This document shows positions 5,873 to 58,425 of a DNA stretch of 64,000 nt, in pieces. Source of the DNA: Escherichia coli (GTDB lineage Bacteria > Pseudomonadota > Gammaproteobacteria > Enterobacterales > Enterobacteriaceae); the NCBI RefSeq assembly GCF_044324875.1, contig NZ_CP172187.1, one strand, 5' to 3'. The notes below the pieces were generated by a model that did no database searches, was not told the DNA's origin, and saw nothing but the letters and a program-made list of their open reading frames with translations. Within the stretch, counting starts at the first letter, position 1. Each line of letters begins with the position of its first letter. The translations under genes and the position numbers were made by a program.

Positions 5873-6309
5873 CAGCGTAACTCCCGCGTCCTGTGTATCA
5901 CGTGAGTGACAACACCAAAAATACAGATGTTTTCCGGATACAGTGTGCGGAACTCCGGGCTGTCTGAAACCGGCTCCAGTGCCGGGCGTGGGCGCAACAG
6001 CAGTCGTTTGACGGTGAACTCACCATCGATCTCAGCGATAACGATGTCCCCGTGTTGTGGTTTTTCGGCCCTGTCCACTACCAGCAGATCACCATTCTGC
6101 ACGCCAGCCTGGTTCATCGATTCACCGCTGGCGCGCAGAAAGAAGGTGGCTGCAGGTCTGCTGATGCAATAGCTGTTCAGATCCAGTTCCTGCTCAGCAT
6201 AATCAGTGGCAGGCGAAGGAAAACCGGCCTGGCAACGATCGGCAAACAACGGTCGCACGTAACTGTCATTGCCTGAAGGGTCAGCCGGACGGTGATAAAC
6301 GGTACTCAT
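5872..6309 (-). CDS. impA: UmuD/MucA/ImpA-family LexA-like S24 peptidase subunit
   Basis: 145 aa; C-terminal S24 peptidase region (GESMNQAGVQNGDLLVVD...); ATGA overlap with downstream polymerase gene. Confidence 0.85.
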   Translation of the reverse strand: MSTVYHRPADPSGNDSYVRPLFADRCQAGFPSPATDYAEQELDLNSYCISRPAATFFLRASGESMNQAGVQNGDLLVVDRAEKPQHGDIVIAEIDGEFTVKRLLLRPRPALEPVSDSPEFRTLYPENICIFGVVTHVIHRTRELR

Positions 6310-6554
6310 GCTGCAGGCAGCCAGCTGTCGTCCTGCCAGATTTCTTCCAGCAGAGACAGGATACGTTCTTTATCCTTGTCGTTGCGGGCTCCTGTGACAG
6401 ATACAGACGGGGCGCTGCCCTGGTCTATACGCAGCCAGATTTCCGGGTAGTGTGGTTTCAGACGTCGTTCGATTTCATTCTGTAGCGCCTGAAGTGTGCC
6501 TGATTTGAGGTTTTTTGTGCTCTGGCGGTCGAAAAGAATTTCAATGCGGATCAT
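6306..6554 (-). CDS. impC: DinI-like small protein (ImpC-like), first gene of the operon
   Basis: Start chosen at internal ATG (MIRIEILFDR...) preceded by GGGAGA RBS; C-terminus ...ILSLLEEIWQDDSWL resembles DinI family. Confidence 0.7.
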   Translation of the reverse strand: MIRIEILFDRQSTKNLKSGTLQALQNEIERRLKPHYPEIWLRIDQGSAPSVSVTGARNDKDKERILSLLEEIWQDDSWLPAA

Positions 6555-6577
6555 GTTCTCATCTCCCTTTTCTTTTG

Positions 6578-6593
6578 CTGTATGTATATACAG
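6578..6593. promoter_or_regulatory. LexA box (CTGT-N8-ACAG): CTGTATGTATATACAG
   Basis: Consensus SOS box 24 bp upstream of the impC-like start codon. Confidence 0.8.
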
Positions 6594-6862
6594 TATTCTA
6601 ATAACTGAATCCACACACAGTCAAATGTCATTATTGTGACTAAAAAACGCTCAATTCTCTGAGGGTGTGGCTGTATGCCTGCTGTGGACTGCTGTGTCCA
6701 GCTTATCCACAGCATTTTGCGCACGGTTCTGTGAATAAAATACCTGGTTACCCAGGCCGTGCCGGCACGTTAACCGGGCTGCATCCAATGCAAGTGTGTC
6801 GCTGTCGCCGGCATCCTCACCAGGTCACTCAGCAGTCAGGGAGAAAAATGGCGGATGAAGTA

Positions 6863-7221
6863 TGACGGAGACGGTCGGGCAAGTGCCCGTTTCTTTTCCG
6901 ACAAAGGATGTCGCCGTGCTCCTCTTTTTACTGCGCCGGCTGACGCGGCGCGGCATAAACGCTGCCTGTGGTCAGTGTCCCGCGTCCGGCGGGCACGGGA
7001 CGGGCGCTTTTACCGCTCCCGGCTGGCGTCGGTGACAGTGTACGCCAGCCCGTCGCCCTTTTCTGATGAACGCCCTTCAAGCCGCTTTCGCGGCATAGCC
7101 TTGCCGTCAAAAAGACGACGGCTGCGGTATTCCACGGTCGGCCTGACCCGTTACCGGACGCGGTGAACAGCCCACAGGCAGCGGGGAACGGGCACCACAG
7201 GGGGGCCCTCCCGGTGCTCCT
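6863..7221 (+). repeat. leading-region repeat family A, copy 1 (~360 bp, GC-rich, contains long imperfect inverted repeat arms 6954-6989 / 7154-7184)
   Basis: Near-identical to 8168-8526; ends at the RBS of the downstream gene. Confidence 0.85.
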
Positions 7222-7236
7222 GTGAGGAGAATTCCC

Positions 7237-8163
7237 ATGCCAAACTGGTGCTCAAATCGTATGTATTTTTCTGGTGAACCAGCACAGATCGCTGAGATTA
7301 AACGACTGGCCAGCGGTGCAGTCACACCGCTTTATCGCCGCGCCACAGATGAAGGTATTCAGCTGTTTCTGGCCGGTAGTGCCGGACTTCTGCAGACCAC
7401 TGAAGATGTGCGGTTTGAACCATGCCCCGGACTGACGGCTGCCGGACGTGGTGTTGTATCGCCGGAGAATATCGCGTTCACCCGCTGGCTGACACACCTG
7501 CAGAACGGTGTGCTACTGGATGAAAAAAACTGCCTGATGCTGCATGAACTCTGGCTGCAGAGTGGTACTGGCCAGCGTCGCTGGGAAGGATTACCGGATG
7601 AGGTCAGGGAAAGCATCACCGTGCATTTCACCGCCAAAAGAGGTAACTGGTGTGGCTTCTGGAGTAACGAGGATGTATCGGTGTGGTGGAACCGTCTGTG
7701 TGACAATGTACTGCCGGAAAAAACCATGCCGTTTGACCTGCTGACGGTTCTGCCCACCCGCCTGGATGTTGAAGTGAATGGCTTTAACGGTGGTGTTCTG
7801 AACGGTGTTCCTTCTGCGTATCACTGGTATACGGAACAGTATGGCGTGAAGTGGCCTGTGGGGTATGAGGTGAATATCAGCAGTCAGGGAGACAACTTCA
7901 TTCAGGTTGATTTCGACACGCCGTGGTGTCAGCCGGAAAGCGACGTTATTGCAGAATTAAGCCGCCGTTTCAGTTGCACACTGGAGCACTGGTATGCCGA
8001 GCAGGGCTGCAATTTCTGTGGCTGGCAGCGATATGAGCGTGGAGAGCTTGTTGATGTCCTGTGGGGGGAATTGGAATGGTCTTCCCCGACAGATGACGAT
8101 GAGCTGCCGGAAGTCACCGGACCTGCGTGGATTGTCGACAAGGTGGCGCATTACGGTGGATGA
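7237..8163 (+). CDS. hypothetical Cys-rich leading-region protein (family not assigned)
   Basis: 308 aa from ATG preceded by GAGGAG RBS (MPNWCSNRMYF...); multiple Cys/Trp-rich motifs incl. CNFCGW. Confidence 0.7.
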   Translation: MPNWCSNRMYFSGEPAQIAEIKRLASGAVTPLYRRATDEGIQLFLAGSAGLLQTTEDVRFEPCPGLTAAGRGVVSPENIAFTRWLTHLQNGVLLDEKNCLMLHELWLQSGTGQRRWEGLPDEVRESITVHFTAKRGNWCGFWSNEDVSVWWNRLCDNVLPEKTMPFDLLTVLPTRLDVEVNGFNGGVLNGVPSAYHWYTEQYGVKWPVGYEVNISSQGDNFIQVDFDTPWCQPESDVIAELSRRFSCTLEHWYAEQGCNFCGWQRYERGELVDVLWGELEWSSPTDDDELPEVTGPAWIVDKVAHYGG

Positions 8164-8167
8164 ATTC

Positions 8168-8526
8168 TGACGGAGACGGGCGGGCAACCGCCCGTTTCTT
8201 TTCCGACAAAGGATGTCGCCGTGCTCCTCTTTTTACTGCGCCGGCTGACGCGGCGCGGCATAAACGCTGCCTGTGGTCAGTGTCCCGCGTCCGGCGGGCA
8301 CGGGACGGGCGCTTTTACCGCTCCCGGCTGGCACCGGTGACAGTGTACGCCAGCCCGTCGCCCTTTTCTGATGAACGCCCTTCAAGCCGCTTTCGCGGCA
8401 TAGCCTTGCCGTCAAAAAGACGACGGCTGCGGTATTCCACGGTCGGCCTGACCCGTTACCGGACGCGGTGAACAGCCCACAGGCAGCGGGGAACGGGCAC
8501 CACAGGGGTGCCCTCCCGGTGCCTTC
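8168..8526 (+). repeat. leading-region repeat family A, copy 2
   Basis: Near-identical to 6863-7221; ends at RBS of the methyltransferase gene. Confidence 0.85.
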
Positions 8527-8546
8527 TGTAAGAGAAGGAGGCTTTT

Positions 8547-11986: not shown

Positions 11987-12178
11987 TACAGGGGCAGGCG
12001 GTGGAGGCCGCCTGTCAGCCCGCGCGAAAACCCCTGGCAGGCTGACGCCTGCCGGAAGGGAAGCGGGCCACGCTGGCGCGTCGCCCGTTACCCTTCCCGT
12101 CTGTGATGTGTCTGACTCAGGAGTGTTTCTTTCTTATGTTGCGGAACTGTTCCTGATGTTGTTGTTGTTCCTTTATCT

Positions 12179-12788
12179 GCTGCTCTGATTCTGACTACTG
12201 CAGTGTTGTTCTGTCTGCCGGGCGCACCTTCGGCTCCCGGCTGCCTGGCGGCATCCGGTCGTCAGGCCCGACTCCGACAGGCAGCTGCTGGCGCACCTGC
12301 CAGTCTCCGCCGAACCCGCTGGCGCGGCTTCGGGCTGCCGCTACGGTCCGATGCGTGAAAACCCCGGGCTTGCAGCGACCGTTCTGGTCGCGCCGCCTCT
12401 GTCGCGCCGTGGCCTGCGCTCCAGGCATCCCGGCAAAAAGACGCCGGGATGTAAGGCGCAACGCCGTTTCGCAAACCGCGCTTCACGTCGTTGCTGCGGG
12501 TCCCTGCTCATTGCCTGCCGGGTGCCACACACCCGTATGAGTCCCTGTCGCCGGGGGCATAGACAGCCACAACCTGCCGCACTGACTGTCCAGGGTAAAT
12601 GAACAGCCCACAAAATTTTTTACCCAAAACCCGGTAAAAAATTTTGCGTTCTGCCCAGGACAGGTGCGTCAGGCCGTGGCAGTGATGCCCCTTGCGGCGA
12701 AGGTTCTCAAACGGGTGAAGTTCATACCACAGGGAATACAGCAGCAGGTTCCCGCGAAACGTCAAAACCGCGGCTCCCGAAACTCAAC
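12179..12788 (+). repeat. leading-region repeat family B, copy 1 (~610 bp, GC-rich, internal palindromes); Frpo/ssi-like
   Basis: Three near-identical direct copies (12179-12788, 15536-16167, 23600-24229); contains hairpins such as CATCCCGGC-AAAAAGAC-GCCGGGATG. Confidence 0.85.
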
Positions 12789-13027
12789 GGGTGATGTTCT
12801 TTAAAAATCAGGATTTATTTCAGGCTCCGGCAATACGCATTTATGTGTTCTGTCAGTCATCCGGCTGGCAGGTAATGAGAACGCAGGAACAGAAGGAGGA
12901 AAACACCGGAGAACGTCAGACGCAGATATGAAAAAAGCAGGCCGGGGAGGACCTGCTTAATCCACACCGCAAAAACTGTTCGAGCAGTTTCTGCGGTTCC
13001 ATTCAACAGTCATAAGGAGTTTCATTT

Positions 13028-13258
13028 ATGACGGTAAGTATTGTTTCACCTTCCGCAGCGGCTGTAAAGCCCCGCCGTCATCCCCGTTTCAGACGCGAAG
13101 ACATCCCCGCGCCGGAAATTGACCCCGTGCTGAAAGCCTTCGGGCGACACATAGCCCGGAGTTTTCACCGGGGGCGTGGTGTACACATCCCCGCCATGAA
13201 AAACACGGCCTTCGGGCAGGTGCTCCGCACACTCGAACTGAAACGCGCTTTTAACTGA
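13028..13258 (+). CDS. hypothetical basic small protein (76 aa)
   Basis: AAGGAG RBS; first ORF after repeat B1. Confidence 0.45.
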   Translation: MTVSIVSPSAAAVKPRRHPRFRREDIPAPEIDPVLKAFGRHIARSFHRGRGVHIPAMKNTAFGQVLRTLELKRAFN

Positions 13259-15525: not shown

Positions 15526-15535
15526 CTTCTTTTTC

Positions 15536-16167
15536 CTGCTGCTCTGATTCTGACTACTGCAGTGTTGTTCTGTCTGCCGGGCGCACCTTCGGCTCCCGGC
15601 TGCCTGGCGGCATCCGGTCGTCAGGCCCGACTCCGACAGGCAGCTGCTGGCGCACCTGCCAGTCTCCGCCGAACCCGCTGGCGCGGTTTCGGGCTGCCGC
15701 TACGGTCCGATGCGTGAAAACCCGGCTTGCAGCGACCGTTCCGGTCGCGCCGCCCCTGTCGCGCCGTGACCTGCGCTCCAGGCATCCCGGCAAAAAGACG
15801 CCGGGATGTAAGGCGCAACGCCGTTTCGCAAACCGCGCTTCACGTCGTTGCGGCGGGTCCCTGCCCGTTGTTGTGTCCGGTGCCATTCACCTGTTTAAGC
15901 CCCTGTCGCCGGGGGCTGATACAGCCACAACCTGCCGCACTGACTGTCCAGGGTAAATGAACAGCCCACAAAATTTTTTACCCAAAACCCGGTAAAAAAT
16001 TTTGCGTTCTGCCCAGGACAGGTGCGTCAGGCCGTGGCAGTGATGCCCCATGCGGCGAAGGTTCTCAAACAGGTGATGGTGAATACCGGAGGGAACAAAG
16101 AGCAGGTCCCCGCAAAACGTCAAAACCGCGGCTCCCGAAACTCAACAGATGATGGGGGCTGAAAACA
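15536..16167 (+). repeat. leading-region repeat family B, copy 2 (immediately upstream of ssb)
   Basis: Near-identical to copies at 12179 and 23600. Confidence 0.85.
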
Positions 16168-16187: not shown

Positions 16188-19100
16188 ATGGCAGTTCGTG
16201 GCATTAACAAGGTCATTCTTGTCGGTGTGCGCCGTTGAAGCGCGGTGTTTTATGGAGTGTTGCCTGAAAAGCAACATGGCTTAGTGGTATAGCCATTGCA
16301 TACTGTGGTTAGCCTTGCTTGGTAACAGGCTCGGAGATCCTGAAAAGGAGAGGTGAACATAGCATCCACAGAAAAGGGTGGTGAATATGGAAATCGTTAT
16401 AAGTATCACCATTCAATGCAAGATGTATATGGATAAACTGGGTTTGTTGAAGTCGAGATCTATGTGGGAAACAGGAAACCAATAACGCAGAACGATTGAA
16501 GCGTTATTCCCGTACTAGCACAAGAAATCCGTCCGACGTTGATTGTGACCACTCTAACGGGCCAGCTATTGATGAAATAGTTAAACGATCGAAAGACATC
16601 CTAAGTACATCGCATCTCCACACCGTGAAACTACGGGACTACCTAAACTGGATTTATACCCAGCATGGTAGCGGAGTCTCCATAGTACTCAAGGTCGGCC
16701 TGTAATGGGTTCCGGCAGTCCGCATTATACGGAAGCAGCAAAGGTATAAATCAACCGGAAGGAAGATGAAAGCCTCACAGTGCTGCGGGGAAGGGAGACA
16801 GTTGTTAGATACATCAATCTCTAAGAGGAGGGTTAGCCAATGCTGCCTGATGAACTTGAGAAAAGATTAGATGGAATTGAGGATGCTTCAAAAAAAGGGT
16901 ATCCAGTACGTAATCTATACAAAATTGCGTGTGAGCCCGGACTGTGGCTGCAAGCCTACGTGAATATACGGGCCAATGCAGGTGCACTGACTCAAGGTGT
17001 ATCAACAGATACCATTGATGGCTTTTCTATCGAAAGAGCAGAGAAGCTGGCAAAAACATTGCGGAGTAGAGAATACGTAGCGAAACCTGTACGCAGAGTT
17101 CAGATCCCAAAAAAGGACGGAAAAACCAGACCGCTGGGGATTCCAGGTGGAGACGATAAACTGGCGCAAGAAGTAGCAAGAATTATTCTGGAAAGGGTTT
17201 ATGAACCAGTATTCTCTGAACACTCTCATGGATTCAGACCAAAACGTTCGTGTGAAACTGCGCTCAGATCTATTCGTCCAGTCTGGAACGGAGTTAAATG
17301 GATCGTGGATGTTGATATCAAAGGTTTCTTTGACAATATCCCCCACAAACTATTGCTGAATACACTGGCAGAGAAAATTAAGGATAAGAATTTCCTGAAA
17401 TTAATCGAACAGTGGCTGAAGGCAGGATATGTGGACAATTGGAAATACCATCGCTCATATTCTGGCACGCCACAAGGTGGGATAATTTCTCCCTTACTGG
17501 CAAATATATACCTCGACAAACTGGACCGTTTTGTAGAACAGAATTTAATTCCTGCATATACAAGCGGTACAAAACGAAGAGCGAATCCAGATATGAACAG
17601 GCTGGCCCATAAGATTCATAAACTACGAAAGAAAGTAGACGGTATGGCAACTGATTCTGAATCAGAAAAAGAAGCCATAAAGAAAGAAATTGAACGACTG
17701 CTTGAAGAAAAACGTTCTATACCATCTCAGGTCATGAACGATCCAAACTTCAGGCGTATGTACTATGTTCGATATGCTGATGACTTCGTAATCGGTGTCA
17801 TCGGCTCGAAGAAAGATGCTGAACATATATCAAGACAGGTCAGAAACTTTATTACTACTTCACTGGGATTGGAAGTTAATGAAGCAAAGACCAGGATCCG
17901 CCATATCTCAGAAGGAGTTAATTTTTTAGGCTATGAAATCAGACAGGCAGATGCAAAGAAATTGCTGAAGCAGAAAATGCAAGGGCGGCACGCTCTCCGG
18001 AGATCCACCACAGGAATTGTGCAGCTCTTCGTTCCTGACAATATAGCCGCTAAATTTTGTCACCAAAAGAAATATGGCTGTTATGAGAATGTGAAGGCTG
18101 TACATCGTTCAAGTCTACAAAATCTCAGTGAAGCTGAAATTGTTCTGACTTTCAACGCGGAAATGCGCGGATTGGCGAACTACTACAGTCTGGCGCTGGA
18201 CATGAAATATAAATTATCAAAATTATATTTCATATGGCAAATAAGCCTTTTTAAGACCCTGGCGAATAAACGACGTAGTTCAGTGAATAAAGTCGCCAAA
18301 TCGCTACGGCAAAATAATGGAGATCTGGCTATTACCGTTCAGGCCAAAAATGGATCCCGAAAGATTGAGGTTTTCAAACTCAAACATGTCAATCGCAACC
18401 GAACAACGATTGTCGATACGGAACCGAGAACCGCACATATCACAACCCGCACAACAGAGATCATGCGTCGATTAGGGGCAAGGATCTGCGAGTATTGTGC
18501 GAAGACTGGGCGCTGCGAAGTACATCATGTCAGAAAGCTAAAAGACCTGAAGAAAGGTCGTAAGGCCGGATATAAACCCAGCTTGTGGCAACTAATGATG
18601 ATCGCACGCCGCCGGAAAACGATGATTTTGTGCGCAAGTTGCCACGACAAGTTACATAGCGGAAAACTACCCGATTTGAGACAGGAAAAGGGAAGAATAC
18701 TCCTGCAACCACCTGTCTCAAGCGGGGATTCTGCTAAATGAGTTTATCCCCAATAAGCTAGCAATGGAGAGCCGTATGCACTGAAAGGTGCACGTACGGT
18801 TCGGAGGGGGGGTAACGGTGATCTAACTCAAGATAAGCAGGACATATTCGCCATTTATCTTGAAAGACCACACGTACCCTACCCTACCGTCTGGGAAAAG
18901 ATCCGGAAGTCCGTTACATCCCAAACGGGGGCGCAGTGGCAAACCTGCAGGTGGCCACGTCAGAAAGCTGGCGCGACAAACAGACGGGGGAGATACGGGA
19001 GCAGACAGAATGGCATCGCGTGGTGCTGTTCGGCAAGCTCGCGGAAGTGGCTGGTGAGTATCTGCGCAAGGGCGCGCAGGTCTACATCGAAGGTCAGCTT

Positions 19101-33377: not shown

Positions 33378-33511
33378 CTGGCCCTGAAGTTGTATATCAG
33401 CCGGCAATGTCGGCGGGCTTTCTGTATTCAAAATCTGCCTGTAAAACGAGTGCCCTGTGCGTGAAAAGGGATGGGCGGTAGCGTGTCAGAACATGTCGGG
33501 AGGAATATTCC

Positions 33512-48493: not shown

Positions 48494-51312
48494 ATGAAGT
48501 TTATGTGATTGCCGGTGGTGAGTGGTTGCGGAATAACCTGAATGCCATTGCCGCCTTTATGGGAACCAGAACGTGGGATTCCATTGAAAAAATTGCGCTC
48601 ACATTGTCTGTTCTCGCGGTGGCCGTAATGTGGGTACAGCGGCACAACGTGATGGATTTGCTGGGCTGGGTGGCCGTGTTTGTGCTTATCAGCCTGCTGG
48701 TTAATGTCCGTACATCGGTGCAGATTATTGATAACAGTGACCTGGTCAAAGTTCACCGGGTGGATAATGTGCCGGTCGGACTGGCGATGCCACTTTCACT
48801 GACGACCCGTATCGGGCATGCAATGGTGGCCAGTTACGAGATGATCTTCACGCAACCGGACAGTGTCACCTACAGCAAAACGGGGATGCTGTTTGGCGCA
48901 GAACTGGTATCAAAAAGCACCGACTTTTTGTCCCGTAATCCGGAAATCGCCAATCTTTTCCAGGATTATGTGCAGAACTGCGTGATGGGGGATATTTACC
49001 TGAACCACAAATATACGCTGGAGGAGCTGATGGCCTCCGCTGATCCCTACACGCTGATTTTTTCCCGCCCCAGCCCGCTGCGGGGCGTTTATGACAGCAA
49101 TAATAATTTCGTAACCTGTAAGGACGCTTCGGTTTCGCTGAAAGACAAGCTGAATCTGGACACACAGAGTGGCGGAAAAACCTGGCATTATTATGCCCAG
49201 CAGCTATTTGGCGGACGCCCTGATCCTAACCTGCTGTTCAGTACGCTGATTGGCGACAGTTACAGTTACTTCTATGGCTCAAGTAAATCAGCCAGCCAGA
49301 TCATCCGCCAGAATGTCACCATCAATGCGCTGAAGGAGGGGATCACCAGTTATGCCGCACGTAATGGTGATTCGGCCAGCCTGGTGAATCTGGCCACCAC
49401 GTCATCGATGGAGAAACAACGTCTGGCACATGTATCAATCGGTCATGTGGCGATGCGGACACTGCCCATGACGCAGACCATCCTGACGGGGATCGCCATC
49501 GGTATTTTCCCGCTCCTGGTACTGGCGGCTGTATTCAACAAACTGACGCTGTCCGTCCTGAAAGGCTATGTGTTTGCCCTGATGTGGTTGCAGTCATGGC
49601 CAATGTTGTACGCCATTCTGAACAGCGCCATGACATTTTATGCAAAGCAGAATGGTGCACCGGTGGTGCTCTCGGAAATTTCACAGATACAGCTGAAATA
49701 CTCCGATCTGGCTTCCACTGCCGGGTATCTTTCCATGATGATCCCGCCATTATCCTGGATGATGGTCAGGGGGCTCGGGGCAGGATTTTCCAGTGTGTAC
49801 AGCCATTTCGCTTCCTCTGCTATCAGCCCGACCGCCAGTGCAGCAGGCAGTGTGGTTGACGGTAATTACTCCTACGGCAACATGCAGACGGAGAACGTGA
49901 ACGGCTTCAGCTGGAGCACCAACAGCACCACGTCGTTTGGTCAGATGATGTACCAGACCGGCAGTGGCGCAACTGCCACACAGACCCGTGACGGTAATAT
50001 GGTGATGGATGCAAGCGGAGCGATGTCCCGGTTACCGGTCGGCATCAATGCAACGCGTCAGATTGCGGCGGCACAACAGGAAATGGCCCGGGAAGCATCG
50101 AACAGAGCAGAAAGTGCCCTGCATGGGTTCAGCAGCAGTATTGCCAGTGCCTGGAACACGCTCAGTCAGTTTGGTTCTAACCGGGGGAGCAGTGATTCTG
50201 TCACCGGTGGCGCTGACAGTACGATGAGCGCACAGGACTCCATGATGGCCAGCCGTATGCGCAGTGCAGTGGAAAGCTATGCGAAGGCGCATAATATCAG
50301 TAATGAGCAGGCGACTCAGGAACTGGCATCCAGAAGTACGAGAGCTTCTGCCGGGATGTATGGAGATGCTCATGCTGAATGGGGGGTTAAACCTAAAATT
50401 CTTGGTGTTGGTGGAGGATTAGGTGTTAAAGGTGGTGGTCGCGCTGGTATTGATTGGGAAGATAATGATGCGCATACGGCAAGTAGTAATACTCAGTCGA
50501 GCCATAATGCTCGTCATGATATCGATGCCAGAGCTACACAAGACTTTAAAGAGGCCAGCGATTACTTTACCAGTCGCAAGGTCAGTGAGTCCGGCAGCCA
50601 TACTGACAATAATGCTGATTCCCGTGTGGATCAGTTGTCTGCAGCCCTGAACTCAGCAAAACAGAGTTACGACCAGTTCACGACGAATATGACCCGCAGC
50701 CATGAATATGCTGAAATGGCATCCCGTACTGAAAGCATGAGTGGGCAGATGAGTGAAGACCTGTCGCAACAGTTTGCACAGTATGTGATGAAACACGCGC
50801 CGCAGGATGCCGAAGCTATTCTGACAAACACCAGTTCACCGGAGATTGCAGAACGCCGTCGGGCTATGGCGTGGTCTTTTGTTCAGGAACAGGTGCAGCC
50901 TGGTGTTGATAATGCCTGGCGTGAATCCCGTGGGGACATCGGTAAAGGAATGGAGAGCGTACCTTCGGGTGGTGGCAGCCAGGATATTATTGCTGATCAT
51001 CAGGGGCATCAGGCCATTATTGAGCAAAGAACGCAGGACAGTAATATCCGTAATGATGTAAAACATCAGGTTGATAATATGGTCACAGAATACCGAGGCA
51101 ATATCGGAGATACTCAGAGCAGCATACGTGGCGAAGAAAATATTGTAGGAAGACAGTATTCTGAACTACAAAATCACCATAAAACAGAGGCATTATCTCA
51201 GAATAATAAATATAATGAAGAAAAATCGGGTCAGGAAAGAATGCCCGGGGCTGACAGTCCACAGGAACTGATGAAAAGAGCAAAGGAGTATCAGGATAAG
51301 CACAAGCAATAA
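48490..51312 (+). CDS. traG: TraG (mating-pair stabilisation / entry exclusion determinant)
   Basis: 940 aa MNEVYVIAGGEWLRNNLNAIAAFMGT... Confidence 0.9.
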   Translation: MNEVYVIAGGEWLRNNLNAIAAFMGTRTWDSIEKIALTLSVLAVAVMWVQRHNVMDLLGWVAVFVLISLLVNVRTSVQIIDNSDLVKVHRVDNVPVGLAMPLSLTTRIGHAMVASYEMIFTQPDSVTYSKTGMLFGAELVSKSTDFLSRNPEIANLFQDYVQNCVMGDIYLNHKYTLEELMASADPYTLIFSRPSPLRGVYDSNNNFVTCKDASVSLKDKLNLDTQSGGKTWHYYAQQLFGGRPDPNLLFSTLIGDSYSYFYGSSKSASQIIRQNVTINALKEGITSYAARNGDSASLVNLATTSSMEKQRLAHVSIGHVAMRTLPMTQTILTGIAIGIFPLLVLAAVFNKLTLSVLKGYVFALMWLQSWPMLYAILNSAMTFYAKQNGAPVVLSEISQIQLKYSDLASTAGYLSMMIPPLSWMMVRGLGAGFSSVYSHFASSAISPTASAAGSVVDGNYSYGNMQTENVNGFSWSTNSTTSFGQMMYQTGSGATATQTRDGNMVMDASGAMSRLPVGINATRQIAAAQQEMAREASNRAESALHGFSSSIASAWNTLSQFGSNRGSSDSVTGGADSTMSAQDSMMASRMRSAVESYAKAHNISNEQATQELASRSTRASAGMYGDAHAEWGVKPKILGVGGGLGVKGGGRAGIDWEDNDAHTASSNTQSSHNARHDIDARATQDFKEASDYFTSRKVSESGSHTDNNADSRVDQLSAALNSAKQSYDQFTTNMTRSHEYAEMASRTESMSGQMSEDLSQQFAQYVMKHAPQDAEAILTNTSSPEIAERRRAMAWSFVQEQVQPGVDNAWRESRGDIGKGMESVPSGGGSQDIIADHQGHQAIIEQRTQDSNIRNDVKHQVDNMVTEYRGNIGDTQSSIRGEENIVGRQYSELQNHHKTEALSQNNKYNEEKSGQERMPGADSPQELMKRAKEYQDKHKQ

Positions 51313-51860: not shown

Positions 51861-52592
51861 ATGAAAATGAAAAAATTGATGATGGTTGCACTGGTCAGTT
51901 CCACTCTGGCCCTTTCAGGGTGTGGTGCGATGAGCACAGCAATCAAGAAGCGTAACCTTGAGGTGAAGACTCAGATGAGTGAGACCATCTGGCTTGAACC
52001 CGCCAGCGAACGCACGGTATTTCTGCAGATCAAAAACACGTCTGATAAAGACATGAGTGGGCTGCAGGGTAAAATTGCTGATGCTGTGAAAGCAAAAGGA
52101 TATCAGGTGGTGACTTCTCCGGATAAAGCCTACTACTGGATTCAGGCGAATGTGCTGAAGGCCGATAAGATGGATCTGCGGGAGTCTCAGGGATGGCTGA
52201 ACCGTGGTTATGAAGGCGCAGCTGTTGGTGCAGCGTTAGGTGCCGGTATTACCGGCTATAACTCAAATTCTGCCGGTGCCACACTCGGTGTAGGCCTTGC
52301 TGCTGGTCTGGTGGGTATGGCTGCAGATGCGATGGTGGAAGATGTGAACTATACCATGATCACGGATGTGCAGATTGCAGAGCGTACTAAGGCAACGGTG
52401 ACAACGGATAATGTTGCCGCCCTGCGTCAGGGCACATCAGGTGCGAAAATTCAGACCAGTACTGAAACAGGTAACCAGCATAAATACCAGACCCGTGTGG
52501 TCTCAAATGCGAACAAGGTTAACCTGAAATTTGAAGAGGCGAAGCCTGTTCTCGAAGACCAGCTGGCCAAATCAATCGCAAATATTCTCTGA
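51861..52592 (+). CDS. traT: TraT surface-exclusion lipoprotein
   Basis: 243 aa; lipobox LALSGC. Confidence 0.9.
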
Positions 52593-52794
52593 ACCTCGTC
52601 AGGAGGCTGATCTGACCGGCCTCCTTGCTGACGCCTCGCGTTGCTCGTTGTCCAACCCCGGGATGTAACAAAATAAATTTTGTCACCTCCCGGCGTTTCC
52701 GAAATAAATATGAAAACACTGAGCGGTTGTGCAAATTCTTTGTGCGACCGTGAAGTGTTGCCGGCGAAGCCGGGATCTTCCGGAGAAAGTCATT

Positions 52795-53509
52795 ATGACA
52801 TCAGACAATATCGCTGAATATGTTGGTGAGAATAATCAATTTACTGAGAAGCCTGTAACTGAATACCCCCCGGTGATACAGGATAATACAGTGACCACTA
52901 AAGACTATCTGTACAGCAATAATATTGATACTGACCTTTTAGTGGTTATCGGAGGGCTTATTGTTATATTGTTTCTCATGATGCTTATCATGTACTTTAT
53001 TAATTCTCTCAGGCATAAGGAATTAACTGAAATACTGACAAAAATATCTTTTCCTGAAAAATCCGGGAGCAATTCGCTTAAACCGGAAGCGGTCAGCTGT
53101 AATTTGTTGTCCCTGTGTGTGCTGGCACCGGTATTCTGTACACCCAAAAAGCTGGCTGAAGTTTCCAGGGAGATCATCGTGGCGAGTGCGCAGGAGATTG
53201 CATGGACGCCGGGGAGCAGTCGTATTGATGGTCATCAGGGCGAAAATATTACCTGGTCTCTGTCGTCACAGTCTCATGCCGATAAATACGAGCTCATCAA
53301 TAAAACGTCCCGTGTTTCTCCTGACAGTGGCCGTTTTTATGAACCGGACACAGTTCTGGATCACCGTGAACGGGTACGCCTTTTTATTCAGATCCAGTTT
53401 CCGCATGGGAGTGACTGGTCTGAAGTATTGCGCCTGACTGACATTGTTGCAGAGAAGGTCTCTTCCGGCAGGACTGCAGGTGCGTATTCCGCTCTATTCG
53501 ATCACGGAT
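52795..53509 (+). pseudogene. unknown membrane-anchored protein gene truncated at its 3' end by IS insertion
   Basis: ORF 52729-53583 reads through into IS terminal sequence; one TM segment; AT-rich start. Confidence 0.5.
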
Positions 53510-53579
53510 TGGCATCGAAGTCCGATCAGCGATTCGCATCCATTCGATCAACCGGGAACTTAACTTTTTCTACCGCTTT

Positions 53580-54335
53580 TTAACGCGTTTTTTCGCTGCT
53601 TTCCACTACCGGGGGATTTTTCCTCAGTGACTCTCCCTGAAGGACCACTCGGTGTGAGTTATGTACCAGTCTGTCCAGGATGGCATCTGCTGTTGTTGGG
53701 TTCTCCATCAGACCATGCCATTTATCTACCGGGAACTGGCTTACCACTATCGTGCTGCTTTGTCCGTAACGATCCTCTATGAGCTCCAGAAGGTCATTAC
53801 ACTGGGCGTTACTTAACTGTTCCAGCCCCAGATCGTCCAGGATTAGAACCTGTATTTTTTGCAACTGTTTCAGATATTTCAGCCAGCTGCCATCAACACG
53901 TCCCTGAGCCAGTTGTTCCAGTAATCGCCCGGTTCTACAGTACCGGACGCTGTGTTTCTGTCGACATGCCTGTTCGCCCAGCGCATTGGCTATCCAGCTC
54001 TTGCCACATCCTGTCGGACCGGTTATCAGCAGGTTTTTCCTGTGGGTTATGTAGTGGCCGTTCAGCAGTTCTCTCATCTGTTCAGCCCGCAGACCTCTTG
54101 AGGCCGGATAGCGCAGCCCTTCCGGTGTTGCCTGGTATTTCAGGCCGGCATTTTTTCTCAACCGTGCCACACGGCTGTTTTCCCTGCTCAGAAGCTCGTC
54201 ATCAACCAGCAGCGTCAGCCTTTCCTCGAACGACAGTTCGTCGTAGGTCTGAGGCGTTTCCCGCTGCCGTATCAGGCTCCCGGCCATCGCCGGGAGTTTC
54301 AGTTGGGTCAGTTTGTTTAACAGGTTATCACTCAT
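53580..54335 (-). CDS. istB: IstB helper ATPase
   Basis: 251 aa from MSDNLLNKLTQLKLPAMAG; Walker A GPTGCGKS. Confidence 0.9.
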   Translation of the reverse strand: MSDNLLNKLTQLKLPAMAGSLIRQRETPQTYDELSFEERLTLLVDDELLSRENSRVARLRKNAGLKYQATPEGLRYPASRGLRAEQMRELLNGHYITHRKNLLITGPTGCGKSWIANALGEQACRQKHSVRYCRTGRLLEQLAQGRVDGSWLKYLKQLQKIQVLILDDLGLEQLSNAQCNDLLELIEDRYGQSSTIVVSQFPVDKWHGLMENPTTADAILDRLVHNSHRVVLQGESLRKNPPVVESSEKTR

Positions 54336-54351
54336 ACTGTTGTTCCTTCTG

Positions 54352-55887
54352 TCAGTGGTAGTAGCCCGGACCACGCAGGTTTTCATGCTCTGAAGCATAT
54401 GCCGGATGTTGTTCGCCCTGGCGGGATAATGGAAGCTCCAGGTTCTCCCGATGGTGACGCAGCAGATTGTCGATAAAGCGTCTGTCAGGGGCGTTATAGT
54501 GCAGGGCAACGTAACAGGCCTTTTCCAGCCGTTCCGGGCCGTATTTTTTCTGAAGTGCCAGCAGCCCCAGAACTGCACGATAAGCCAGTTCCGGATGGGG
54601 TTTTGCCTTCAGCATGGATTCAACCACCCGGCCTGTGGACGGGCCCGTACGTTTTCCCTGCTCGATCAGGCGTTCCGGTGTCCATGTCCCGTGCTGCCGG
54701 TGGCGCTCTGGCATGTGAAGCGGATTGGTTGTGTGTTTATATTCATGTGTGCTGCGCGGATGTTGCGCCACACACTGCCCCTTGTGCCAGAGCTGTACCA
54801 CCGACTGCCCCGCCTTCAGTGACAGACGCTGACCGACCAGTTCGTGTGGAACGGAGTACCAGTGACGGGCATATTCAACGTGGTAGTCAGGGCCAACCTT
54901 CACAGCTTTGTATTCCGTGTATTCATAAGGTGCCAGAGGCAGCGGAGAGAGTGCTGGCGCATCCAGTATGCGGAAGCGTTCTGCACGGGTTTGATTGCCG
55001 TACCCCTTCATTGGCCGGTTATTCATGTCTGTCAGTAACTCCCTAAGGCGCGCATTCAGCGCCCTGAGCGTGTGGAAGGTTTCATTACGGATGCGGGCAA
55101 GAAGCCATCGTTCAACGATGAGGACGCCGTTTTCTGCTTTTGGTTTATCTTTAGGTTTGCGTGGTCGGGCCGGGATGATAACCGTGCCATAGTGCTCAGC
55201 CAGTGCCTGATAACTGTCGTTGATGACAGGCTCATATCGATCGGCCTTTTTCACTGCGCTTCTGAGGTTATCGGGGATGAGCAGCTTCGGTACGCCGCCC
55301 AGGAAGGTCAGGCAACGGCTGTGGGCATTTAACCATGACATCATGTCCTGACCTTCGCACGCTTCAACGTAGGTATAGTTGGACGCCCCCATTACGGCCA
55401 CGAAGATTGCCACGCGGCGTATCTCACCGGTGTCCGGATTAATAACAGGAACCGTAGGACCACAGAAGTCGATAAAAAGCTTTTCGCCGGCACGATGCTC
55501 CTGGCGCATGGAGAGACGTCGCGTTTTTTTCCACTCCCGGTAGCAACGGCAGAAGTGCGAGTATCCCATCGCTTTGTTACCCGCCTGTGCCTTGTATTCC
55601 ATCCACAACAGTTGCCGCGTCACACCTGGTTTTCTCATTTCCGTATCGAAGTACAACATGTCAGGCATTACAAGCTCTGATGCAAAGGTGTCTTTGGGCG
55701 GAAAAATGAGTTTCTCCAGCGTGTCATGGGATATATCAGCAGGTAATGGCCATGACAGAGAAGAGGCTTTGAAGCGGGCAAGAACCTCAAAAACGGTTGA
55801 GGCGCTGATGTGTAACGTCAGTCCGATACAACGGTTAGTCAGCTTCTTGTCGAACTTGAGCTGAAGGATCTTAAAACAGGTTTCCAT
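54352..55887 (-). CDS. istA: IstA transposase (DDE)
   Basis: 511 aa from METCFKILQLKF...; AGGAG RBS. Confidence 0.85.
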   Translation of the reverse strand: METCFKILQLKFDKKLTNRCIGLTLHISASTVFEVLARFKASSLSWPLPADISHDTLEKLIFPPKDTFASELVMPDMLYFDTEMRKPGVTRQLLWMEYKAQAGNKAMGYSHFCRCYREWKKTRRLSMRQEHRAGEKLFIDFCGPTVPVINPDTGEIRRVAIFVAVMGASNYTYVEACEGQDMMSWLNAHSRCLTFLGGVPKLLIPDNLRSAVKKADRYEPVINDSYQALAEHYGTVIIPARPRKPKDKPKAENGVLIVERWLLARIRNETFHTLRALNARLRELLTDMNNRPMKGYGNQTRAERFRILDAPALSPLPLAPYEYTEYKAVKVGPDYHVEYARHWYSVPHELVGQRLSLKAGQSVVQLWHKGQCVAQHPRSTHEYKHTTNPLHMPERHRQHGTWTPERLIEQGKRTGPSTGRVVESMLKAKPHPELAYRAVLGLLALQKKYGPERLEKACYVALHYNAPDRRFIDNLLRHHRENLELPLSRQGEQHPAYASEHENLRGPGYYH

Positions 55888-56226
55888 AGTGCTCCTGGAT
55901 TTTCTCTTTCTGGACATTGACGTCTCCACTGGTTTAAACACGGCAATGGAGACTGTGGTGAAAAGAGTTAATTCCCGGAGTGACTGGCAGGATGCCAATC
56001 AATGATCGGAAGCATGCCAAATCGTGATCGATTGTGATGCCAAACTGTGATCGGAGATGGATGCCAAATCATGATCGATTCGAATGCCAAACTGCGATCG
56101 ATTCAGATGCCATTTTGCAGCAGGCGGGTATCACCACCGGCATACAGGGTACACCTGGTCTGTTTCTGTGAATTAACCCCACATCATCCTTTTCTGCCCT
56201 GTTCCAGATTTTCCCGGAGTTTCATC

Positions 56227-58425
56227 ATGAGTTTTAACGCAAAGGATATGACCCAGGGCGGTCAGATTGCGTCCATGCGTATCCGCATGTTCAGCCAGAT
56301 CGCCAATATCATGCTTTACTGCCTGTTTATTTTTTTCTGGATACTCGTTGGTCTGGTTTTATGGGTAAAAATAAGCTGGCAGACGTTTGTGAACGGCTGT
56401 ATTTACTGGTGGTGTACCACGCTGGAAGGCATGCGGGATTTAATCAAGTCCCAGCCAGTATATGAGATTCAGTATTACGGCAAAACCTTCCGGATGAACG
56501 CTGCCCAGGTACTGCATGATAAATATATGATCTGGTGCGGTGAGCAGCTATGGTCCGCATTCGTTCTGGCGTCTGTCGTGGCCCTGGTTATTTGCCTGAT
56601 CACCTTCTTTGTTGTCTCCTGGATTCTGGGGCGTCAGGGTAAACAACAGAGCGAAAATGAAGTCACAGGTGGTCGTCAGCTGACAGACAATCCGAAAGAC
56701 GTTGCCCGGATGCTGAAAAAAGACGGCAAGGACTCCGATATCCGGATTGGCGACCTGCCGATTATCCGGGATTCCGAAATCCAGAACTTCTGTCTGCACG
56801 GCACGGTCGGGGCCGGTAAGTCGGAGGTTATCCGTCGTCTGGCCAACTACGCCCGTCAGCGCGGTGATATGGTGGTGATTTATGACCGTTCAGGGGAATT
56901 TGTTAAAAGTTACTATGATCCCTCCATCGATAAAATCCTGAATCCGCTGGATGCCCGCTGTGCCGCATGGGATTTGTGGAAGGAGTGCCTGACACAGCCG
57001 GATTTTGATAATACCGCAAATACTCTGATCCCTATGGGTACAAAAGAGGACCCGTTCTGGCAGGGTTCAGGACGTACCATTTTTGCGGAAGCGGCGTACC
57101 TGATGCGTAATGACCCCAACCGCAGCTACAGCAAACTGGTGGACACACTGCTTTCCATCAAAATTGAAAAACTGCGTACCTTCCTGCGTAATTCACCGGC
57201 AGCCAACCTGGTGGAAGAGAAAATTGAGAAAACGGCGATTTCCATCCGTGCTGTGCTGACCAACTACGTGAAAGCCATCCGTTACCTGCAGGGGATTGAG
57301 CATAACGGTGAGTCTTTTACCATCCGTGACTGGATGCGTGGTGTCCGGGAAGATCAGAAAAACGGCTGGCTGTTTATCTCGTCGAATGCCGACACCCATG
57401 CCTCCCTGAAGCCGGTGATCTCCATGTGGCTGTCCATTGCCATTCGTGGTCTGCTGGCAATGGGAGAAAACCGTAACCGTCGTGTGTGGTTTTTCTGTGA
57501 CGAGTTACCCACGTTACACAAACTGCCGGACCTGGTGGAGATCCTGCCGGAAGCCCGTAAGTTCGGAGGCTGTTATGTGTTTGGTATCCAGTCCTATGCC
57601 CAGCTGGAAGATATCTACGGTGAGAAAGCGGCGGCCACGCTGTTTGACGTCATGAACACCCGTGCTTTTTTCCGTTCCCCGAGCCATAAGATTGCAGAGT
57701 TCGCTGCCGGTGAGATTGGTGAGAAAGAGCACCTGAAAGCCAGCGAGCAGTATTCCTACGGTGCTGACCCGGTACGTGACGGGGTATCGACCGGTAAGGA
57801 TATGGAGCGTCAGACACTGGTCAGTTATTCCGACATTCAGTCTCTGCCGGATCTGACCTGCTATGTCACTCTGCCCGGACCGTATCCGGCAGTAAAACTC
57901 TCCCTGAAATATCAGGCACGACCGAAGGTCGCTCCGGAGTTTATTCCGCGTGACATCAACCCGGAAATGGAGAACCGTCTGAGTGCCGTACTTGCTGCAA
58001 GGGAAGCAGAAGGTCGCCAGATGGCCAGCCTCTTCGAACCGGAGGTTGCCTCCGGAGAAGGCGTGACTCAGGCTGAACAGCCACAACAGCCACAACAGCC
58101 ACAACAGCCACAACAGCCACAACAGCCACAACAGCCACAACAGCCAGTGTCTTCTGTCATGAATGATAAGAAGTCAGATGCAGGTGTGAGTGTTCCGGCA
58201 GGGGGGATCGAGCAGGAGCTGAAAATGAAACCGGAAGAAGAGATGGAACAGCAACTGCCACCCGGGATCAGTGAATCCGGTGAAGTGGTGGATATGGCCG
58301 CTTATGAGGCATGGCAACAGGAAAATCATCCGGACATCCAGCAGCAGATGCAGCGTCGTGAAGAGGTGAACATTAATGTGCACCGGGAGCGCGGGGAGGA
58401 TGTTGAGCCGGGAGATGATTTCTGA
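56227..58425 (+). CDS. traD: TraD coupling protein (T4CP)
   Basis: 732 aa from [13 protein letters not shown]...; Walker A GTVGAGKS; C-terminal QPQ repeats. Confidence 0.9.
58078..58146 (+). repeat. in-frame 9-bp tandem repeat (CAGCCACAA)x~7.7 encoding (QPQ)n in TraD C-terminus
   Basis: Read directly. Confidence 0.9.

Follow-up and report, generated by a model that had tools for sequence, protein, structure and literature searches.

An insertion sequence in the traT-traD gap of an F-like conjugative plasmid from Escherichia coli raises the question of whether the transfer genes beyond it can still be expressed. The initial annotation of the 64-kb stretch of DNA analyzed here, referred to below as the window, had placed an IS21-family element at this point, antisense to the tra operon and truncating a gene for an unknown membrane protein, and had proposed that it may part traD, traI and traX from upstream promoters. 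The explanation that we favor, and hold to be rather probable, is a recent insertion of an ISSso4-like element in the 3' end of a gene named here ORF245, accompanied by a loss of traD, traI and traX expression that we infer to be partial rather than complete. Insertions of this kind are already familiar, as are the element and the operon, and the discovery is a minor one; an effect on plasmid transfer is nevertheless plausible.

The inserted element

The position of the element between traT and traD (ATG at 56227) and its antisense orientation, on the minus strand, both hold (Table 1), and its limits can be drawn more tightly than before. The span first proposed, 52795 to 56226, does contain an insertion sequence, although the true limits are 53481 and 56119 and the remainder belongs to the gene that was interrupted and to the leader of traD. 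Likewise, the interrupted reading frame does start at the ATG at 52795, but it enters the element at the 53480/53481 junction, about 30 bp to the left of the entry point of about 53510 given initially. The exact ends, which the initial annotation had proposed to define by alignment, were fixed through six other copies from unrelated plasmids, each of 2,639 bp with identical ends and with 0-4 mismatches to the copy in the window.

Table 1. Positions of the element, the interrupted gene and the surrounding transfer genes in the window
Feature	Coordinates	Strand	Details
ops element	33474-33485	+	GGCGGTAGCGTG; between traV and traR; the IS lies about 20 kb downstream
traT	51861-52592	+	Surface exclusion / complement resistance; ORF and annotation of a 99.9%-identical relative
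GC-rich hairpin	52601-52625	+	Directly 3' of traT, conserved in F; likely traT terminator; predicted fold
Interrupted gene (262-aa fusion ORF)	52795-53583	+	ORF245 residues 1-228 (to 53480), then 34 IS-coded residues and stop
GCAGG target-site duplication, left copy	53476-53480		
ISSso4-like IS21-family insertion sequence	53481-56119	-	Complete, 2,639 bp; six same-length copies elsewhere
Right IS end, istB-distal	53481-53539	-	Terminal TGCG...; two inverted copies of ATGCCAANNNNNGATCG
istB	53580-54335	-	AAA+ helper ATPase, 251 aa
istA	54352-55887	-	IS21-family transposase, 511 aa; coordinates carried over from the PGAP annotation of another copy
Left IS end, istA-proximal	55992-56119	-	Five copies of ATGCCAANNNNNGATCG; terminal ...TGCA
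GCAGG target-site duplication, right copy	56120-56124		
Orphaned 3' end of ORF245 gene	56120-56176	+	Last 17 codons and stop, 5-bp duplicated stretch included; reconstruction
traD	56227-58425	+	Coupling protein of 732 aa, reading frame intact; start codon, with its ribosome-binding site, 107 bp downstream of the IS end
traI	58425-63695	+	Relaxase/helicase, intact, 1,756 aa

The ends of the element, TGCGTATTCC... and ...CATTTTGCA, are unchanged in all seven copies, and the terminal inverted repeats open with 5'-TG and finish with CA-3', as is characteristic of the IS21 family. A 5-bp direct repeat, GCAGG, borders the element on both sides as the short target duplication typical of IS21, while the six other copies are flanked by duplications of 5-7 bp; target duplications in the IS21 family measure 4-8 bp. 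Both ends also carry the repeated short motifs, presumed to be transposase binding sites, that mark this family. All seven matches to the motif ATGCCAANNNNNGATCG in the window fall inside the two IS ends (0.58 expected by chance), a clustering far beyond chance. Between the ends lies the IS21 gene pair, in which istA, encoding a DDE transposase, is followed after 16 bp by istB, encoding an AAA+ helper ATPase, on the same strand. The product of istA scores 284 bits against NCBIfam NF033546 (cut-off 160) and, in Pfam, 72 bits against Mu-transpos_C_2, above the cut-off, with rve at 32.0 bits falling just under its cut-off of 32.6; that of istB scores 257 bits against NCBIfam NF038214 (cut-off 200) and 204 bits against Pfam IstB_IS21. 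Taken together with the TG...CA ends, the terminal motifs and the GCAGG duplication, these profile scores bear out the family originally assigned.

PGAP names the identical IstB protein (WP_001282653.1) "IS21-like element ISSso4 family helper ATPase IstB", and the label "ISSso4-like" used here rests on this naming rather than on an ISfinder reference sequence. The name ISSso4 is in use in the plasmid literature (PMC6052338, PMC6361801, PMC9927407). The PGAP-annotated copies of this family share length, ends, gene pair and proteins with the window element, differing from it by 0-4 nt, so that the element itself is no different from those found elsewhere and its location alone is new. Near-identical copies occur in many unrelated contexts, including IncF, IncHI2, IncI and IncX1 replicons as well as chromosomes, and in E. 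coli they are abundant, at up to 20 places per genome. A composite transposon or larger island was considered and ruled out, as the window holds only one copy of the IS and relatives have the two flanks joined without a break.

The interrupted gene

ORF245 is our name for a 245-aa hypothetical single-pass membrane protein encoded between traT and traD, whose intact form in plasmid pGZM7d is recorded as "hypothetical protein" WP_123891608.1. The view that a gene for an uncharacterized membrane protein has been interrupted is thus upheld, and one membrane helix is predicted in its product. "Truncating" describes the event in part: the gene is broken, but the insertion point lies 17 codons short of the stop, and the loss is confined to the final 17 of the 245 residues, with 34 IS-encoded residues added in their place. 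The 17 lost residues nevertheless contain a 13-residue motif that is nearly invariant across homologues, and ORF245 has probably been inactivated or altered by the insertion.

Searches of Pfam, NCBIfam, PADLOC and PDB sequence profiles gave no match that would indicate a function, and no paper on a gene in this position turned up in the literature searched. An exhaustive phmmer search against 1.84 billion representatives returned only 53 close relatives or fragments, and an AlphaFold2 model built from an 11-sequence alignment has a mean pLDDT of 45. Of the F-like plasmids with a match to this region, about 43% carry the gene; F itself lacks it. Its codon differences, with a synonymous to non-synonymous ratio of about 1:1 and an excess at third positions, show signs of purifying selection; frameshifted variants are also present in databases.

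Empty site and distribution of the junction

Deleting the IS and one GCAGG copy reconstructs an empty site of 1,164 bp, which as a query is matched over at least 80% of its length by 1,787 PLSDB plasmids, with identities reaching 99.9%. In pGZM7d (NZ_CP129283.1) the order traT-ORF245-traD is uninterrupted, and the IS flanks are 99.7-99.9% identical to this relative, with traD and traI intact in the window. The junction, in contrast, was absent from 72,556 PLSDB plasmids, from 5,426 complete RefSeq E. coli genomes and from the GTDB species representatives, and an exact-protein lookup found the fusion protein (WP_395762626.1) on one contig. The insertion is judged to be recent, because the IS is within 0-4 bases of other copies and the flanking tra genes are intact.

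Repeats as numerous in E. coli as the ISSso4-like copies are known to provoke assembly errors, and it might be supposed that a mis-assembled repeat has put the element at this site. This is extremely unlikely, since a clean 5-bp target duplication together with an exact empty site at 99.9% identity is the signature of real transposition rather than of a collapsed repeat, and the TG...CA ends meet the flanks without extra bases. We consider instead that, by ordinary cut-and-paste transposition, an active ISSso4-like element of the IS21 family has recently entered an accessory gene of this F-like E. coli plasmid, at the 3' end of the gene.

Transcription of the surrounding operon

The genes traG, traS, traT, traD and traI share one strand and have intact reading frames, the series being interrupted by the gap between traT and traD, in the arrangement of an F-like (MOBF12 / MPF_F) operon, and Rfam identifies FinP and the traJ 5' UTR upstream; the same search over 52.4-56.4 kb gave no match. 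PY is reported to be the sole promoter known for the tra operon, and full-length tra transcription needs RfaH and the ops element (PMC7303359). Dependence of the distal tra genes on RfaH has been reported for both F and R1 (PMC7303359, PMC7593976), and in ops-bearing operons RfaH prevents Rho-dependent polarity (PMC12360218). The 12-nt ops consensus on the non-template strand, GGCGGTAGNNTG, has one exact match in the window (0.06 expected), and F carries the same sequence at the same position. A site in this upstream location should blunt Rho-dependent polarity. The region of the hairpin behind traT aligns with F at 93%, and we infer that this hairpin is the terminator that has been described as acting on PST transcripts only (PMC7303359).

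Between the stop codon of the fusion ORF and the start of traD, 2,643 nt of the plus strand (53584-56226) are predicted to be untranslated and antisense to the IS. C-rich, G-poor 78-nt segments make up 10% of this interval, compared with 0.4-6.6% in traG, traD and traI. Candidate intrinsic terminators on the plus strand inside the IS, seven weak hairpins each followed by a T-run, were rejected as not above expectation (3.9 +/- 2.1 in shuffled sequence). A consensus scan for a plus-strand promoter that could serve traD from the IS end or the IS-flank junction found none, and neither did a laxer scan of the plus strand over 55850-56235, in which 8 hexamer matches out of 12 sufficed. A literature search likewise found no paper on a traD-specific promoter. 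In older reports traI, and possibly also traD, is weakly expressed independently of TraJ; if the promoters concerned sit upstream of 53481, the IS displaces those too. The proposal that the element may part traD, traI and traX from upstream promoters is anatomically correct, with PY as the sole known promoter (PMC7303359) and nothing resembling a promoter found from the IS to traD.

Coupling by RfaH is most effective where the RNA is being translated, and 2.6 kb of untranslated sequence may still permit termination, which is a caveat to any argument for partial polarity.

Comparison with other insertions

The gap between traT and traD has received other elements. At least 15 complete plasmids, CP057734.1 and NZ_CP024281.1 among them, carry ISCro1-like insertions of the IS66 family there, whereas the ISSso4-like insertion is a single record. 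As in the window, these are complete elements (about 2.7 kb) surrounded by intact tra genes. They occur in two configurations, one inside the 5' end of ORF245 and the other in a gap that lacks ORF245, while the element described here sits at the 3' end of the gene. Besides belonging to another family, the ISCro1-like elements lie in the sense orientation and could feed traD by read-through, unlike the antisense IS in the window. The F plasmid (NC_002483.1, PGAP annotation) offers a second parallel, in that a transfer-proficient plasmid tolerates foreign DNA between traD and traI, namely a vapBC pair in antisense orientation; vapBC is, however, about 0.7 kb long, fixed and downstream of traD, whereas the IS is 2.6 kb long, a one-off and upstream of traD. 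The tolerance of ISCro1-like elements and of vapBC in the distal operon was counted in favor of a partial effect.

The classical case of an IS in the transfer region that alters conjugation is IS3 in finO of the F plasmid (PMC5102898). That insertion knocks out a repressor and raises transfer. The element in the window instead interrupts the operon itself, with essential genes downstream of it, and its only possible effects on transfer are a decrease or none.

These cases invite a further reading in which the traT-traD gap would be a landing pad tolerated through shielding by ops and RfaH and, separately, ORF245 would be a functional accessory protein. The first half would account for the gathering of IS elements, the variable ORF245 cassette and the vapBC of F in the distal operon without loss of transfer; the second draws on the narrow orphan family, the position beside the exclusion genes and the fact that the conserved C-terminal motif is what the IS removes. 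We regard this reading as unlikely.

Probable consequences for traD, traI and traX

Since traD, traI and traX depend on transcripts that start far upstream at PY, their expression is probably lowered but not silenced. Rho-dependent polarity and head-on transcription from istAB would be the sources of the drop, which should be only partial because RfaH, already carried by RNA polymerase from the ops element between traV and traR, suppresses Rho-dependent polarity. The expected phenotype would be a piliated donor with a reduced transfer frequency, and not a dead transfer system.

The effect could be more severe, with the antisense element stopping essentially all PY transcripts before traD, so that pili and exclusion proteins are made while DNA is neither processed nor pumped; the plasmid would then be transfer-dead and have taken the first step of tra decay. 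The 2.64-kb stretch of RNA that should go untranslated, with its C-rich, G-poor segments, the convergent istAB transcription and the lack of any visible replacement for PY, the sole known operon promoter, all point this way, as does a junction known from one contig, which is what a non-spreading plasmid would leave, although any very recent event would equally give a single occurrence. Against this, the ops element is intact and the RfaH system is reported to take polymerase past the traT terminator, traD and traI are free of decay, and an IS in this gap has not prevented other plasmids from persisting, and we judge so complete a block to be somewhat unlikely. The opposite outcome, in which RfaH-modified polymerase crosses the IS almost normally, ORF245 is dispensable and transfer is normal, is in our view improbable. 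It draws on the presence of ops, on the toleration of antisense vapBC between traD and traI by F, and on the lack of ORF245 from F and its frameshifted variants in databases, which suggest that the protein is not needed for transfer. However, RfaH lessens termination and does not abolish it, head-on istAB transcription along a long untranslated stretch should carry a cost, and the signs of purifying selection on ORF245 and the near invariance of its lost C-terminal motif argue against dispensability.

Implications

If the expression of traD and traI is indeed lowered, the plasmid would go on bearing the cost of pili yet spread less efficiently than relatives that lack the IS. This bears on the prediction of transfer from sequence, as typing tools such as MOB-suite score the presence of genes and not the continuity of the operon. 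Compared with an IS-free sibling, the plasmid would also offer a simple natural test of how far ops and RfaH protect a 30-kb operon from insertional polarity.

An IS21-family element between traT and traD

The window represents an F-like conjugative plasmid in which a leading region is followed by FinP and the traJ 5' UTR, and then by tra genes on the + strand that form a complete run as far as traI. All of the gathering-level Rfam matches tabulated below are expected in an F-like plasmid. Relatives annotate ltrA at the position of the group II intron. In the window traD and traI adjoin, unlike in F, with no vapBC insert there.

The initial annotation placed an IS21-family element between traT and traD, antisense to the tra genes, and this is confirmed. 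With the NCBIfam IS21 transposase model the IstA product reaches 284 bits (cut-off 160); in Pfam it matches the C-terminal domain of Mu transposase, with the rve integrase core at 32.0 bits, slightly under its cut-off of 32.6. For IstB, the helper ATPase model gives 257 bits (cut-off 200) and Pfam IstB_IS21 gives 204. The coordinates of both genes were taken over from the PGAP annotation of a copy with one mismatch. In PLSDB, thousands of megablast hits share one pair of end positions. Six copies compared on unrelated backbones (IncF, IncHI2, IncI-gamma/K1 and IncX1) are all 2,639 bp long, start with TGCGTATTCC, finish with CATTTTGCA and show 0-4 mismatches to the copy in the window; each has a 5-7-bp direct repeat on either side. 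For the window copy this repeat, the target duplication, is GCAGG (53476-53480 and 56120-56124). The motif ATGCCAANNNNNGATCG occurs five times in the istA-proximal end and twice, inverted, in the other, and has no further occurrence in the window, against a chance expectation of 0.58 matches in the 64 kb.

The element shows all four features that define the IS21 family: istA paired with istB, ends of the form TG...CA, several repeats at the termini and a short duplication of the target. PGAP labels the identical IstB as 'IS21-like element ISSso4 family', and plasmid papers use the ISSso4 name for such elements (PMC6052338, PMC6361801); by product name and usage the element is probably best called ISSso4-like.

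Features of the window and of comparison loci
Feature	Position	Strand	Remarks
Repeat pair	6850-7231 and 8155-8536		383 bp, 96.6% identity
Direct repeats (3)	12165-12796, 15528-16166, 23584-24229		~630-640 bp, 93-98% identical; leading region
AS-pc01 antisense RNA	12932-13033	-	Rfam gathering-level match
Group II intron	about 16840-18887		633-aa ORF 16840-18741, then Rfam Intron_gpII match 18767-18887
sok	22997-23173		Rfam gathering-level match
traJ 5' UTR and FinP	27181-27290		Rfam gathering-level match
ops, GGCGGTAGCGTG	33474-33485	+	exact, single in window; between traV and traR, 30 bp 5' of traR start
AS-traG antisense RNA	49209-49294	-	Rfam gathering-level match
traT	51861-52592	+	upstream of element
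ISSso4-like element	53481-56119	both genes -	2,639 bp; between traT and traD
istB	53580-54335	-	251 aa; second gene
istA	54352-55887	-	511 aa; first gene
Orphaned ORF245 3' end	56120-56176		separated by element
traD	ATG at 56227	+	downstream of element
TraD PQQ repeat	about 58090-58160		traD 3' region
AS-traI antisense RNA	61274-61350	-	Rfam gathering-level match
ISCro1-like IS66-family element	L010 2242-4939; also L012, L013	sense	traT-traD gap of other plasmids or contigs

The interrupted gene

Removal of the element and one GCAGG copy rebuilds an empty site of 1,164 bp, which matches 1,787 PLSDB plasmids at a coverage of at least 80%, four of them at 99.8-99.9%. One of these, the near-identical plasmid pGZM7d (NZ_CP129283.1), lacks the element and is annotated in the order traG, a hypothetical gene in the place of traS, traT, WP_123891608.1 (245 aa, hypothetical), traD and traI; the rebuilt gene, ORF245, encodes that 245-aa protein. 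Insertion took place 3' of codon 228, replacing the final 17 residues with 34 encoded by the element end in a 262-aa fusion (52795-53583). The initial annotation gave the start at 52795 exactly and correctly had the frame read into the element, although its junction near 53510 was about 30 bp off.

Its description of the interrupted gene as an uncharacterized membrane-type protein is also supported. ORF245 has one strongly hydrophobic stretch (about residues 47-68), which lies inside the helix (43-85) of an otherwise poor AlphaFold model (mean pLDDT 45) and is the sole well-supported part of it. Sequence profiles from Pfam, NCBIfam, PADLOC and PDB gave no match to the protein. When 1.84 billion cluster representatives were searched exhaustively with phmmer, 53 proteins were retrieved, each a close relative or a fragment; all hits of a word-indexed search were hypothetical proteins, from Escherichia, Salmonella, Shigella and Klebsiella, so that ORF245 constitutes a narrow orphan family. 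The C-terminal two-thirds is conserved among relatives, including the 13-residue motif lost through the insertion, which is invariant or near-invariant; the N-terminus and membrane helix are variable. Compared with relatives of 95-98% DNA identity, synonymous codon changes are about as many as non-synonymous ones (10:12, 11:8 and 10:10), with third positions in excess. These counts indicate a genuine gene on which purifying selection is moderate.

Absence from F (NC_002483.1) suggests that ORF245 is dispensable. The 252-bp traT-traD gap of F matches the window in the first 184 bp past traT and the final ~10 bp before traD, and since both edges are shared without the gene, ORF245 acts as a cassette of ~795 bp, present, as judged by coverage, in 1,787 of 4,134 matching PLSDB plasmids (about 43%). 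A 106-aa alternative-frame ORF (53117-53437, +) lies in the +1 frame within it, and about two dozen 213-aa variants carry frameshifts, at differing positions, all into this frame. Many of them come from automated assemblies and are the lone members of their clusters; the variants may reflect sequencing errors or be true pseudogenes. Fragments of ORF245 are also fused in database ORFs (P0015, P0016, P0074, P0078, P0085, P0096 and P0100) to FinO/ProQ, TraX, relaxase, TraU, TraT, TraK or methyltransferase domains, which suggests that deletions and rearrangements often terminate within it.

Age and precedents of the insertion

No more than 4 bases separate the element from other copies. Identity to pGZM7d is 99.87% in one flank and 99.67% in the other, and the traD and traI reading frames are open. 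The sole notable flank difference is the TraD PQQ repeat, with seven copies here and eight in pGZM7d; variation in traD repeat number is reported for F33 plasmids (PMC6052338). Neither the 72,556 plasmids of PLSDB nor 5,426 complete E. coli genomes contain the left junction, and a scan of the GTDB species representatives was likewise negative; within a 15-billion-protein collection the exact fusion protein (WP_395762626.1/XJR48406.1, E. coli) traces to one 100,879-bp contig. By these comparisons a common element has inserted here recently and, so far, uniquely; the event is an ordinary one, of a known insertion sequence into a known operon.

Contigs traced through a 219-aa truncated form of ORF245 carry an ISCro1-like element between traT and the 5' end of that gene, in the same gap as the window element but of the IS66 family and in sense orientation. 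The ISCro1-like element overlaps its flank by about 9 bp (window-equivalent 52812-52820). A 300-bp query across this junction matches 27 PLSDB records at a coverage of at least 80%, 15 of them as one piece, from pig, chicken, human and water isolates. Two configurations occur: traT-IS66-truncated ORF245-traD (CP057734.1) and traT-IS66-traD without ORF245 (NZ_CP024281.1). In F, PGAP annotates vapC/vapB, a toxin-antitoxin pair in antisense orientation, between traD and traI (5967-6592 of the F locus L003, equal to 91966-92591). Together, these cases indicate that it is not rare for the distal tra operon to hold foreign DNA.

Expression of traD, traI and traX

The initial annotation was concerned that the element may separate traD, traI and traX from upstream promoters. 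From the stop of the fusion ORF at 53583 to the traD start, 2,643 nt of + strand would be expected to remain untranslated, and only 107 bp of native sequence is left between element and ATG. C-rich, G-poor composition is the type used by Rho, and such 78-nt windows make up 10% of this stretch, compared with 0.4-6.6% in traG, traD and traI. Transcription of istAB would collide head-on with tra transcription, and the + strand at 55850-56235 holds no promoter-like hexamer pair, even at 8 of 12 matches. PY, the promoter of the tra operon, is described as the only one known for its roughly 35 genes (PMC7303359). These features support the concern.

Against the concern stands the RfaH system. Full-length tra operon transcription is reported to need RfaH and its recruiting site ops (PMC7303359), and RfaH is described as blocking Rho-dependent polarity in operons with ops (PMC12360218, PMC7593976); F carries the identical ops at the identical position. 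The terminator after traT acts only on transcripts begun at the traS/traT promoter (PMC7303359), so that PY transcripts are already termination-resistant on arrival there. Our best estimate is that expression of traD, traI and traX would be lowered, not abolished, with complete loss and absence of any effect as the competing outcomes: a functional consequence of the insertion is plausible, probably softened by RfaH. The uncharacterized ORF245 cassette is one of two mildly novel threads, and the idea that ops and RfaH may allow the distal part of the operon to tolerate insertions is likewise mildly novel.
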